Shown piece after piece: positions 25,055 through 35,686 of a stretch of 60,550 bases of DNA. Numbering within the stretch: position 1 is the first letter of the stretch; the number at the start of each line of letters is the position of its first letter. The DNA comes from a virus (Duplodnaviria > Heunggongvirae > Uroviricota > Caudoviricetes). A model generated the notes under the pieces. That model was not told the DNA's origin and did not search any database. It saw only the letters and a program-made list of their open reading frames with translations. The translations under genes were made by a program, and so were the position numbers. The stretch lies in IMG/VR virus record IMGVR_UViG_2844443253_000004, one strand, 5' to 3'.

Positions 25055-28493
<3,439 letters not shown>

Positions 28494-31863: not shown

Positions 31864-31886
31864 CCCGCCTCCGGGCGGGTTTTTTA
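31864..31886 (+). terminator. tR'-like rho-independent terminator downstream of Q
   Basis: CCCGCC-tccg-GGCGGG followed by TTTTTTAT. Confidence 0.65.
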
Positions 31887-31973
31887 TGCCTGAAAAACGG
31901 TACAGGACGTTAAACACGCTGGTGGTCAGATGAGTTTGCAGATGTGATGACATATGGTTATTATTCTGCCTCC

Positions 31974-32050
31974 GGCCCTTTAGCTCAGTTGGTCAGAGCG
32001 AGCGACTCATAATCGCCAGGTCGCTGGTTCAAGTCCAGCAAGGGCCACCA
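31974..32050 (+). tRNA. tRNA (CAU anticodon; Met or Ile2-type)
   Basis: identical to 20693-20769. Confidence 0.8.
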
Positions 32051-32051
32051 A

Positions 32052-32128
32052 CCACCACTAGCTCATCCGGATAGAGCATCAACCTTCTAAGTTGACGGTG
32101 CGAGGTTCGAGTCCTCGGTGGTGGGCCA
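32052..32128 (+). tRNA. tRNA-Arg (UCU)
   Basis: identical to 20771-20847. Confidence 0.8.
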
Positions 32129-32130
32129 GC

Positions 32131-32206
<76 letters not shown>

Positions 32207-32209
32207 TAT

Positions 32210-32284
<75 letters not shown>

Positions 32285-32576: not shown

Positions 32577-32792
32577 ATGAAATCCATGGACAAAATTTCA
32601 ACGGGCATTGCCTACGGCACCTCCGCCGGCAGTGCCGGCTACTGGTTTTTGCAGTGGTTGGATCAGGTCAGGCCATCACAGTGGGCTGCGATTGGTGTGC
32701 TGGGAAGTCTGCTTCTGGGGCTTCTGACTTATCTGACGAATCTGTATTTCAAAATAAGAGAAGACAAGCGTAAGGCTGCACGGGGAGAGTAA
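32577..32792 (+). CDS. S: class II holin / pinholin S21-type
   Basis: [31 protein letters not shown]...; dual-start Met1/Met4; two TM segments. Confidence 0.85.
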
Positions 32793-32795
32793 ATA

Positions 32796-33425
32796 ATGAA
32801 GCATGAAGAAATGAATCAGCGATTCAATCACCTGGAAAATGAAATCACTGAGCTTAATAAAAAATTGTCGGCGTTGGTGAGTTCTGAAGATGAAAACAAA
32901 CGCCGCGATGAGCATTATGCGGCGATTTACGATTACTGCCACAAAGTCGCTCACGAGACTTTTATGAAGTTTTTGCAGGAAAAGTTTTTACCGGCCGCAT
33001 TGTCAGAAAAAGAGGCGGCTTACCTGCGGCCTGAGTACGTCATTACGGTTAACAGTGCCGGAGAGGAAGAGCATAAAAGTGATTTTATTGCGTCTGCACC
33101 GGATAAAGACCAGGAACCCCATCGGCCTTTCAGGGTTTCCTGTGAAGAGGGTGAGTTCGTCGTTTATGAGAACGGAAAACCTGTCCGGGCATCGCATCAT
33201 CACTGCCTGAAAATTATTAATCTCGCTATCAGATGCCTGAAAGACGAAAACACCAGAGTTATGAAACGCATTGGCCGTTGCATGGGGTATTTGCAGGTGG
33301 CGGCAGAGATTGAAGCACTTGCCAGTGGTGCAGACATGGATGCTGCGGTGCGGGAGGCTCTTCTTCGTGATTTCAATACTCCCCCTTTAAGAAAGAGCCT
33401 GATGACTGGATCCAGCCGGGGCTGA
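32796..33425 (+). CDS. hypothetical protein embedded between holin and endolysin
   Basis: 209-aa ORF, tightly packed (4 bp after S stop); no recognisable motif. Confidence 0.5.
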   Translation: MKHEEMNQRFNHLENEITELNKKLSALVSSEDENKRRDEHYAAIYDYCHKVAHETFMKFLQEKFLPAALSEKEAAYLRPEYVITVNSAGEEEHKSDFIASAPDKDQEPHRPFRVSCEEGEFVVYENGKPVRASHHHCLKIINLAIRCLKDENTRVMKRIGRCMGYLQVAAEIEALASGADMDAAVREALLRDFNTPPLRKSLMTGSSRG

Positions 33426-33490
33426 CTTATCTTAAAAGGCGTATATAAGTTGGCTCGTTATTTGTTGCCGATAAATCCTGATAAATATCC

Positions 33491-34024
33491 ATGAGCGCAA
33501 AAATCAAATACGGCCTGTCGGCTGCTGTTCTGGCGCTGATTGCCGCAGGCGCGTCTGCTCCCCAGATACTTGACCAGTTTCTGAACGAAAAAGAGGGTAA
33601 TCACACAACGGCATACCGTGATGGTTCTGGCATATGGACCATCTGTCGTGGTGCCACAATGGTGGATGGTAAGCCTGTCATACCGGGAATGAAGCTGTCG
33701 AAGGAAAAATGTGACCAGGTTAACGCTATTGAACGTGATAAGGCGCTGGCATGGGTGGAGCGCAATATTAAAGTACCTCTGACCGAACCCCAGAAAGCGG
33801 GTATAGCGTCATTTTGCCCCTATAACATTGGCCCCGGTAAGTGTTTCCCGTCGACGTTTTATAAGCGGCTGAATGCCGGTGATCGTAAGGGCGCATGCGA
33901 GGCGATTCGCTGGTGGATAAAAGATGTTGGGCGCGATTGCCGCATACGTTCAAATAACTGCTATGGACAGGTTATTCGTCGTGACCAGGAAAGCGCATTA
34001 GCCTGTTGGGGGATAGATCAATGA
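33491..34024 (+). CDS. R: SAR endolysin (lysozyme, R21-type)
   Basis: N-terminal signal-anchor-release segment [16 protein letters not shown] then lysozyme catalytic region ...[25 protein letters not shown]... Confidence 0.85.
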
Positions 34025-34422
34025 GCAGAGTCACCGCGATTATCTCCGCTCTGGTTATCTGCATCATCGTCTGCCTGTCATGGGCTGTTAATCATTACCG
34101 TGATAACGCCATTACCTACAAAGAGCAGCGCGACAAAAACGCCGGAGAACTGAAGCTGGCGAACGCAACCATTACTGACATGCAGCAGCGCCAGCGTGAT
34201 GCTGATGCACTCGATGCTAAATACACGAAGGAGTTAGCTGATGCGAAAGCTGAAAATGATGCTCTTCGGCGCAAGCTTGATAATGGTGGTCGGGTGCTCG
34301 TCAAAGGAAAATGCCCTGTGCCATCCTCAGCCGAAACCTCCAGCGCCTCCGGCATGGGCAATGATGCCACCGTCGAACTCTCTCCAGTTGCTGGACGAAA
34401 CGTTCTCGGTATCCGGGACGGG
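34006..34422 (+). pseudogene. Rz: i-spanin Rz, C-terminus cut by IS600
   Basis: N-terminal TM then coiled-coil; the other copy (16296-16541) extends about 22 aa further. Confidence 0.75.
34241..34422 (+). pseudogene. Rz1: o-spanin Rz1 (embedded, +1 frame), last codons replaced by IS600
   Basis: lipobox [16 protein letters not shown], proline-rich. Confidence 0.7.
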
Positions 34423-34486
34423 TGAGGTAGCCTGAGTTTAACGGACACTCCTTCCTGAAATAGAATGGCATCAGAAGGAGCTAATA

Positions 34487-34789
34487 ATGAGCAGAAAAAC
34501 CCAACGTTACTCTAAAGAGTTCAAAGCCGAAGCTGTCAGAACGGTTCTTGAAAATCAACTTTCGATCAGTGAAGGCGCTTCCCGATTATCTCTTCCTGAA
34601 GGCACTTTAGGACAATGGGTTACCGCCGCCAGAAAAGGGCTCGGTACTCCTGGTTCCCGCACGCTGGCTGAACTGGAATCTGAAATTCTGCAACTGCGTA
34701 AGGCGTTAAATGAAGCTCGCCTTGAGCGAGATATATTAAAAAAAGCAACAGCGTATTTTGCACAGGAGTCGCTGAAAAATACGCGTTAA
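34487..34789 (+). CDS. IS600 OrfA
   Basis: one substitution versus copy 1. Confidence 0.88.
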   Translation: MSRKTQRYSKEFKAEAVRTVLENQLSISEGASRLSLPEGTLGQWVTAARKGLGTPGSRTLAELESEILQLRKALNEARLERDILKKATAYFAQESLKNTR

Positions 34790-34824
34790 TCGAACAATGG
34801 CGACAACAATTTCCCATTGAAGCG

Positions 34825-35643
34825 ATGTGTCAGGTATTTGGTGTATCCAGGAGCGGTTATTACAACTGGGTACAGCATGAACCCTCAGACAGAAAACAAA
34901 GTGATGAGCGGCTAAAACCGGAGATTAAGGTGGCACATATCCGCACTCGCGAAACATATGGAACCCGGCGGCTCCAGACGGAGCTGGCAGAGAATGGCAT
35001 CATCGTTGGTCGTGACCGACTGGCACGTCTTCGTAAGGAGCTAAGGCTACGCTGTAAGCAGAAACGCAAGTTCAGAGCGACTACGAACCCGAACCACAAT
35101 CTGCCAGTTGCGCCAAATCTGCTGAACCAGACGTTCGCTCCTACAGCACCAAATCAGGTCTGGGTGGCGGACCTGACGTATGTTGCCACACAGGAGGGAT
35201 GGTTGTACCTCGCTGGCATCAAAGATGTTTATACGTGTGAAATTGTCGGCTACGCCATGGGAGAGCGCATGACAAAAGAGCTGACAGGTAAAGCCCTGTT
35301 TATGGCGCTCAGGAGCCAGCGCCCACCTGCCGGGCTAATCCACCACTCTGATCGAGGTTCACAGTACTGCGCATACGATTACCGGGTCATACAGGAGCAG
35401 TCTGGTCTGAAAACATCAATGTCGCGTAAAGGTAACTGTTACGACAATGCTCCGATGGAAAGCTTCTGGGGAACGCTGAAAAATGAGAGCCTGAGCCACT
35501 ATCGTTTTAATAACCGGGATGAAGCCATCTCAGTAATACGGGAATACATTGAGATTTTCTACAATCGTCAGCGTCGTCACTCTCGTCTGGGGAATATCTC
35601 CCCGGCAGCCTTCAGGGAAAAATATCATCAGATGGCTGCTTAA
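34825..35643 (+). CDS. IS600 OrfB
   Basis: 272 aa. Confidence 0.88.
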   Translation: MCQVFGVSRSGYYNWVQHEPSDRKQSDERLKPEIKVAHIRTRETYGTRRLQTELAENGIIVGRDRLARLRKELRLRCKQKRKFRATTNPNHNLPVAPNLLNQTFAPTAPNQVWVADLTYVATQEGWLYLAGIKDVYTCEIVGYAMGERMTKELTGKALFMALRSQRPPAGLIHHSDRGSQYCAYDYRVIQEQSGLKTSMSRKGNCYDNAPMESFWGTLKNESLSHYRFNNRDEAISVIREYIEIFYNRQRRHSRLGNISPAAFREKYHQMAA

Positions 35644-35686
35644 AAAAAGAACAAATGGTAGTGTCCGCTATTGCCAGTACACCTCA

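Follow-up and report, generated by a model that had tools for sequence, protein, structure and literature searches.

The 209-codon open reading frame (ORF) between the pinholin and endolysin genes of a 60,550-nucleotide caudoviricete stretch (IMG/VR record IMGVR_UViG_2844443253_000004; the whole stretch is called the window here) is, on good support, a late-operon accessory gene of lambdoid prophages of Escherichia coli, Shigella and Salmonella, and the window copy is, equally well supported, a decayed allele. The ORF (32796..33425, + strand; ATG start, 630 nt) encodes a member of the family PHROG 1085 that lacks the DUF1327 domain of longer relatives and ends in an aberrant 12-residue C-terminus. 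We hold the identity and family assignment with high confidence, consider impairment of this particular copy a reasonable expectation, and offer a mechanism for the family only tentatively. The account as a whole, covering family, decayed copy and mechanism, blends these three judgments, and we regard it as probable rather than secure.

A gene identical over the full 630 nt is already present in RefSeq as WP_001300760.1, a ‘hypothetical protein’ of E. coli CFSAN029787, and five further complete genomes carry the gene at 99.8% identity, so the ORF is not unannotated, as a sequence-only reading of the window had described it. That reading also held that nothing in the sequence identifies the protein. 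Residues 1–209, however, match positions 117–288 of the 296-position profile of PHROG 1085 (E=1.2e-73, 249 bits), a catalogued family of unknown function with the sub-fragments PHROG 36381, 26186 and 15975, and the ORF aligns with proteins of the ‘YdfR family’. Among 5.8 billion proteins searched, 132 homologues reached E≤1e-3, and every one of them comes from E. coli or Shigella. Homologues of 287–333 amino acids (aa) carry an N-terminal PF07041 domain (DUF1327, ‘YdfR family’; found in P0004, P0078 and P0090), and it is the C-terminal two thirds of these long proteins that align with, and contain the whole sequence of, the window ORF. Identity reaches 82% over 94% of the ORF for the 333-aa P0004 and 43–44% for the 287–296-aa forms; the closest intact allele, P0002, is 89% identical, and the intact member P0090 matches the full-length PHROG 1085 profile. 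In the window copy the N-terminal part is missing, with PF07041 absent even at E≤1, as are the last residues of the profile, through a frameshift described below, and Pfam and NCBIfam scans of the ORF gave nothing above cut-off, which agrees with the earlier impression that it has no recognizable catalytic motif. Pairwise comparison of the window allele with four others that are homologous gave ratios of nonsynonymous to synonymous substitution rates (dN/dS) of 0.16–0.37, lower in the C-terminal half, which argues for a real protein-coding gene under purifying selection. Together with the 132 homologues, these ratios show that the ORF did not arise by chance.

At its 3′ end, the called ORF departs from the native frame. 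DNA alignment and frame analysis show that a C-run has lost 1 nt, shrinking from C6 to C5, at 33381..33385 (+), where intact alleles have CCCCCC, CCGCCC or CCACCC and read ACT CC(C/G/A) CCC TTT AAG. The deletion swaps the conserved tail, replacing FKKEPDDWIQPGLTYLKRRI and its stop codon by LRKSLMTGSSRG and a stop at 33425. The ancestral tail persists as an out-of-frame relic at 33386..33448 (+), in which translation of frame +2 gives FKKEPDDWIQPGLTYLKRRI, including the invariant W, P and Y, followed by the TAA stop (33446–33448), and tblastn splits the window C-terminal domain over two frames. Ten residues are invariant in the family: G, R, L, Q and A within a GR-x-MG-x-LQ-x-AAEIE motif, a P and a K, and the W, P and Y of the terminal pattern PPFK..P..W..PG..YLK.R (columns W100, P103 and Y107). 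The lesion removes the last three of these ten, and the intact PHROG 1085 tail, with W, P and Y in frame, was not found in the window ORF. In the structural model of an intact homologue described below, the tail packs against the rest of the domain, with a predicted local distance difference test score (pLDDT) of about 87–91 across it. Loss of the tail is not confined to this lineage: alleles P0042, P0074, P0008 and P0013 have independent tail frameshifts or truncations, and the NCBI pipeline flags another allele as a frameshifted pseudogene.

The gene occupies the position that the sequence-only reading gave it, between a pinholin gene and a gene for a signal-anchor-release (SAR) endolysin. 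Upstream lies S, an S21-type class II holin of 71 aa (32577..32792, +) that matches PF04971 ‘P21 holin S’ (E=5.5e-35) and PHROG holin families and carries an M1-K-S-M4 dual-start motif. Downstream lies R, an R21-type endolysin of 177 aa (33491..34024, +; PF00959, E=5.4e-24; PHROG 7 endolysin), with a weakly hydrophobic, Gly/Ala-rich, SAR-like N-terminus and an E-x8-D-x5-T motif. The Rz i-spanin gene follows (34021..34425, +; PF03245), 3′-truncated to 134 aa from the 155 aa of the intact relative at the CFSAN029787 locus, with an Rz1 ORF embedded in it (34241–34435). Q, an antiterminator gene (PF06530), and a cluster of four tRNA genes precede S. Rfam found nothing but the four tRNAs, and Q, the tRNA cluster, S and R are intact in the window. 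Only 3 nt separate the TAA stop of S from the start of the ORF, and the Shine-Dalgarno sequence of the ORF, GGGGAGAG at 32782–32789, falls within the 3′ end of S. From this arrangement the ORF is judged to be translationally coupled to S, as had been proposed; a 65-nt spacer then separates its stop codon from the endolysin start. We detected no promoter or terminator belonging to the ORF, nor any excess of such elements, which together with the coupling points to expression of the family from the Q-dependent late transcript along with the lysis genes. Family members are therefore expected to be made late only and in stoichiometric relation to S. Thus, the earlier suggestion of co-expression at lysis holds at the level of the family but is doubtful at this locus, given the frameshift, the deletion of a partner gene and the disruption by an insertion sequence (IS) described below.

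An occupied slot between S and R is a familiar mosaic variant, not an anomaly. In the Qin prophage of E. coli K-12 the order is essQ-ydfR-rrrQ-rzpQ, with ydfR (b1555) in the slot, and in phage mEp460 it is holin-YdfR-lysozyme-Rz, with gp55 as the YdfR protein; both have a DUF1327 gene between an S21-type holin and a lysozyme gene, with the same late-operon coupling. Of the 438 GenBank phage records with an S21-type holin, 101 contain a DUF1327 gene, and parts of the window ORF occur in 20. Hence the statement that S21 cassettes normally run directly from S to R is correct for roughly three quarters of phage records, although it does not make the remaining arrangement strange. We also surveyed synteny in IMG/VR, using the top 80 loci that carry the C-terminal domain. 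At every surveyed locus with informative flanks, the S21 holin gene is followed by a DUF1327 or coiled-coil start fused to the C-terminal domain and then by R, and the start codon always lies a few nucleotides past the stop of S; complete genomes show the same gene order. This survey, a check that the sequence-only reading had itself proposed, shows the S-ORF-R order to be recurrent and leaves nothing unusual in the arrangement. In Salmonella the homologous genes are placed differently: they follow Q and a DUF4406 gene and precede an HP1-type holin gene. As side observations on the wider cassette, the prophage of E. coli OU349846.1 (L097) that encodes P0004, the nearest homologue with a DUF1327 domain, has a Tad2-like gene (PF11195; 4592–5113) directly after Rz, and the CFSAN029787 prophage has parDE and a KilA-N gene there, making the post-Rz position another cargo site.

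In many relatives the gene has a neighbor that the window lacks. Directly downstream of the C-domain gene in Stx2 phage 86, in 12E129, in several genomes and at the P0002 locus lies a convergent gene of ~104 codons that belongs to PHROG 1853, a family of unknown function with a YLDCEWD motif (copies at L005 2993–3307, L007 4521–4838, L100 495–812 and L096 749–1060, all on the − strand). This partner is 40–77% identical across E. coli, Salmonella and a distant contig, and is always immediately downstream and convergent. The Salmonella locus L007 has it at 47% identity, whereas L010 has an unrelated DUF1883 gene instead; on contig L100, beside a distant homologue, the partner (40% identity) is followed by a GH108 endolysin gene. 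The dependence runs in one direction: all 45 partner-bearing IMG/VR loci have a C-domain gene directly upstream and convergent, and the C-domain is present in all four partner-bearing records of the phage collection, but only roughly 45 of 183 IMG/VR C-domain loci have the partner. Among the best 80 C-domain loci, five have any reverse ORF, and in four of these it is the partner.

In the window, tblastn of the partner gave no match, and only the 65-nt spacer stands before R. Within that spacer, a 14-nt remnant on the − strand (33456..33469; CGTTATTTGTTGCC) matches the last codons and stop of the partner in L005, L014 and L096. The remnant ends at a junction, 33469/33470, ahead of the R leader GATAAATCCTGATAAATATCC, to which it is joined at a short GATAA repeat. 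These features suggest that the partner was deleted from this locus, which no longer has the two-gene arrangement of C-domain gene and PHROG 1853; other partner-less lineages show a different junction. Independently of the window, variants of the slot have other small reverse genes in place of PHROG 1853 (DUF1883, PHROG 10490 and PHROG 2572 genes; L010 4651–4941, L013 2402–2689 and L004 2643–2903, all −), so the convergent position is itself a variable sub-slot.

The prophage around the gene is also damaged. An IS3-family element of IS600 size (1265 bp; 34423..35687, +; orfA 34487–34789, orfB 34825–35643) interrupts the end of the lysis cassette. Compared with the near-identical CFSAN029787 prophage (L001), it replaces about 2.5 kb, which held parDE and the KilA-N gene as well as the last ~22 codons of Rz and ~67 codons from the start of the terminase small subunit gene. 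The loss of this whole stretch, from the 3′ end of Rz into the terminase small subunit gene, makes the prophage defective.

With its tail lost, its partner deleted and its prophage disrupted by IS elements, the window copy is probably impaired or non-functional. The strongest form of this conclusion, that the ORF is at this locus simply an inert relic or pseudogene without any current function, however the family may act elsewhere, is one that we consider slightly better than an even bet. Removal of invariant residues from a tail that packs against the modeled fold argues for it, as do the shifted or truncated tails of other alleles, one of them flagged by NCBI, and the loss of Rz and terminase sequence from an IS-riddled window. 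Several observations weigh in the opposite direction. First, 197 of 217 codons are intact and the start codon and Shine-Dalgarno sequence are preserved. Second, the frameshifted allele is identical in at least six complete E. coli genomes and 12 IMG/VR contigs; its recurrence in the contigs marks it as a stable lineage allele rather than a sequencing error, and a truncated protein with residual function is thus possible. Third, the sequence C|CCT|TTA at 33383–33389 is phased X|XXY|YYZ in the ORF frame, as in a slippery heptamer, and a −1 slip at C CCT TTA would restore the native tail TPPFKKE... of the intact alleles, so low-level slippage could possibly yield the native protein. This phase follows almost automatically, however, because the deletion fell in a homopolymer. 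We rejected programmed −1 frameshifting, as no stimulatory RNA structure was found downstream (minimum free energy −10.9 kcal/mol, z=+0.48 versus shuffles) and intact alleles encode the tail in frame. Finally, with Q, the tRNA cluster, S and R intact, the late transcript may still be made.

The protein divides into three regions. Residues 1–64 (32796..32987, +) form a predicted helical hairpin or coiled coil, with AlphaFold2 helices at residues 3–28 and 31–64 and pLDDT values of 51–81 per 10-residue block, highest for residues 1–20. This module is common to proteins that combine DUF1327 with a coiled coil (PHROG 2091, 36381 and 15975), and tblastn finds residues 1–62 in other slot variants that lack the remainder of the ORF. 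An acidic linker follows (residues 65–110, pI 4.7; 32988..33125, +), the most indel-rich part of the family in alignments and probably disordered, with pLDDT below 50 for residues 63–110. Beyond it lies the conserved C-terminal domain (C-domain), which in the window extends to the frameshift (residues 111–197; 33126..33386, +), contains the GR-x-MG-x-LQ-x-AAEIE motif and is predicted to consist of a three-stranded β-meander and then helices. As had been stated from sequence, there is no transmembrane (TM) segment: the maximum 19-residue Kyte-Doolittle mean is 0.76, and the product is judged to be soluble.

Modeling the whole ORF from a shallow alignment gave a mean pLDDT of 51.9, and this model was not used for fold searches. 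The C-domain of an intact homologue, ~110 aa in full, was modeled with a pLDDT of 88.3 and a predicted template modeling score of 0.80. That model matched nothing among solved or viral folds, and searches of Protein Data Bank chain sequences with a single sequence and with a profile returned only coiled-coil or low-complexity noise; the C-domain thus appears, from the predicted structure, to be an orphan fold. A C-domain profile run against 1.84 billion representative proteins gave only 23 matches, some of them spurious, with relatives at 25–38% identity; the long repeat proteins among the 23 (HEAT, SRCR and LRR) were set aside as spurious. Two architectures recur among the distant relatives, in which the coiled coil and C-domain either stand on their own or follow a DUF1327-like domain. 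A second search identified some of these relatives as Salmonella enterica hypothetical proteins, suggesting that the coiled-coil/C-domain unit is autonomous in at least two genera. Two readings of the protein itself were discarded. A metal-site or catalytic role for an H-x-H...C set does not fit conservation: distant members replace Cys162 by Ser or Ala and keep a single His, the first of the H-x-H being unconserved there. A DNA-mimic or anti-restriction role does not fit composition, since the acidity of the protein is mild (pI about 6) and its C-domain is basic.

What might intact members do? In the mechanism we propose, they would be made only late, from the Q-antiterminated transcript and in step with the holin, as soluble cytoplasmic proteins that oligomerize through the coiled coil. 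The C-domain would serve as a protein-binding module for a cytoplasmic target, and the target area could be host RNA metabolism, possibly RNA decay. The choice of RNA metabolism comes from the recurrent fusion to DUF1327 and from a study of K-12 YdfR, which bound the catalytic (N-terminal) half of RNase E in two-hybrid and co-purification experiments and co-purified RNA (PMC13232886). Given its repeated fusion to DUF1327, the coiled-coil/C-domain unit probably acts in one pathway with that domain. On this reading, the family would supply a binding or adaptor protein, late and cytoplasmic, that is directed at a host factor, a proposal that we regard as tentative and, in its specifics, unlikely to be exactly right. 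Three considerations count against it. Overexpressed YdfR altered few transcripts (PMC13232886). The mechanism rests on a domain fusion and one study of DUF1327, the domain to which the RNase E and RNA data refer (PMC13232886) and which the window ORF does not have; in the literature on YdfR, DUF1327 and lysis cassettes we found nothing on the C-domain. Last, the gene adjoins three different lysis-gene families, which fits a lysis role at least as well. Our best guess nevertheless is that the family is not a core lysis component. Of the roles that the sequence-only reading had raised, namely lysis regulation, anti-defense and a moron function, a classical moron expressed in the lysogen is also unlikely, because the gene has no promoter of its own and its expression would be late and tied to S.

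The lysis role just mentioned would be that of a cytoplasmic regulator of lysis timing, a soluble antagonist or modulator of holin action or endolysin release, functionally like LydB of phage P1. The genomic context is what recommends it: in E. coli the gene always directly follows S and is translationally coupled to it, and distant homologues still adjoin other lysis families, an HP1-type holin in Salmonella and a GH108 endolysin at L100. There is also a precedent in phage P1, whose soluble holin antagonist is encoded after the holin (PMC9025707), and LydB is a positional analog: it is soluble, lacks TM segments, and its gene directly follows the holin gene lydA in a late operon. The analogy does not extend to sequence or profile, as homology to LydB was rejected at an hhalign probability of 0.14%. 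More generally, a comparison with known antiholins and lysis regulators (S21-71, T4 RI and P1 LydB) found no TM topology, no Pfam lysis family and no LydB homology. The ORF product has no periplasmic targeting, S already has a dual-start antiholin motif, and DUF1327 and the ORF are both absent from about three quarters of the phage records that have an S21 holin. Moreover, the slot can equally hold DUF1327 alone, the Salmonella gene lies upstream of its holin gene with a reverse gene in between, and the Q-to-lysis region is a general cargo zone that also holds stx, nanS-p, DUF826 and DUF1378 genes. On balance, we consider a lysis-timing function unlikely.

The conserved partner gene suggests another alternative, in which the C-domain gene and PHROG 1853 form a two-gene cassette with a toxin/antidote-like, exclusion or counter-defense function, the reverse gene being expressed in the lysogen and the forward gene late. 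The conservation of the partner and its unfailing adjacency to a C-domain gene, in IMG/VR loci and phage records alike, are the main attractions of this idea; in addition, the closest intact allele (P0002) has the partner, the window retains its 3′ remnant, and relatives carry defense or anti-defense cargo nearby (parDE and the Tad2-like gene). However, searches of PADLOC-DB v2 gave no match for the ORF, the long homologues or the partner proteins at E≤0.1, apart from a PbeC match on P0090 (E=0.018) that we rejected as spurious, and the forward gene has no promoter of its own. Most C-domain genes have no partner and are still under purifying selection; the forward gene thus works by itself and is no addictive toxin. 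We therefore rate a two-gene cassette of this kind as quite improbable.

A late accessory function, possibly acting on a host factor, remains our preferred reading, and it places the family beside other late cargo of lambdoid phages, which includes ant between R and Rz, the stx, nanS-p, DUF826 and DUF1378 genes upstream of S, and parDE and the Tad2-like gene after Rz. Like the family, all of these are mosaic, non-essential genes of variable occurrence that were inserted at gene boundaries within the Q-dependent late transcript. Those of known role are unrelated in sequence to the window ORF, which also differs from them in its unusually tight coupling to S and in having a dedicated convergent partner at a quarter of loci.

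Elsewhere in the window there are further signs of rearrangement. Two more copies of the 1265-bp IS600-size element lie at 5779–7043 (+) and 23009–21773 (−). A second lambdoid late-region remnant, at 19982–21772 and IS-truncated, encodes a DUF1133 protein, a second Met(CAT)/Arg/Thr/Gly tRNA cluster (20693–21002; 98% identical to the 31880–32284 region) and the first 30 codons of an S21-type holin (21683–21772), which the IS cuts at 21773. The 121-nt Rz stretch before the IS junction at the lysis cassette (34301–34421, +) recurs ~18 kb away as a 100% identical inverted repeat (16366–16486, −), a pattern that suggests IS-mediated inversion or duplication. A 507-codon ORF for a group II intron reverse transcriptase/maturase (RVT_1 and GIIM domains) is present twice in opposite orientation (17960–19483, +, and 25624–27147, −), the two copies flanking a Toprim-domain gene and an IS.

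The window locus itself is of little import, being a frameshifted gene for a catalogued hypothetical protein in a dead prophage, and the significance of these results lies at the level of the family. First, the ‘extra gene’ between S and R can be tied to the YdfR family and to a definable domain of ~110 aa with a predicted orphan fold. Second, that domain has a strictly co-occurring convergent partner, and the pair stays beside different lysis families. For experiments, the pair also offers a definite target of two genes in inducible Stx phages (phage 86 and 12E129), and the family findings complement the report that a YdfR domain binds RNase E (PMC13232886). More speculatively, and with a low probability in our estimation, the coiled-coil/C-domain protein and its strictly dependent PHROG 1853 partner could together be an orphan-fold functional module, so far unrecognized, in temperate enterobacterial phages; it might control lysis timing or late gene expression from the cytoplasm or act as a counter-defense pair. 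If so, the window would hold a degenerate relic of a module that has been kept beside three holin/endolysin families.

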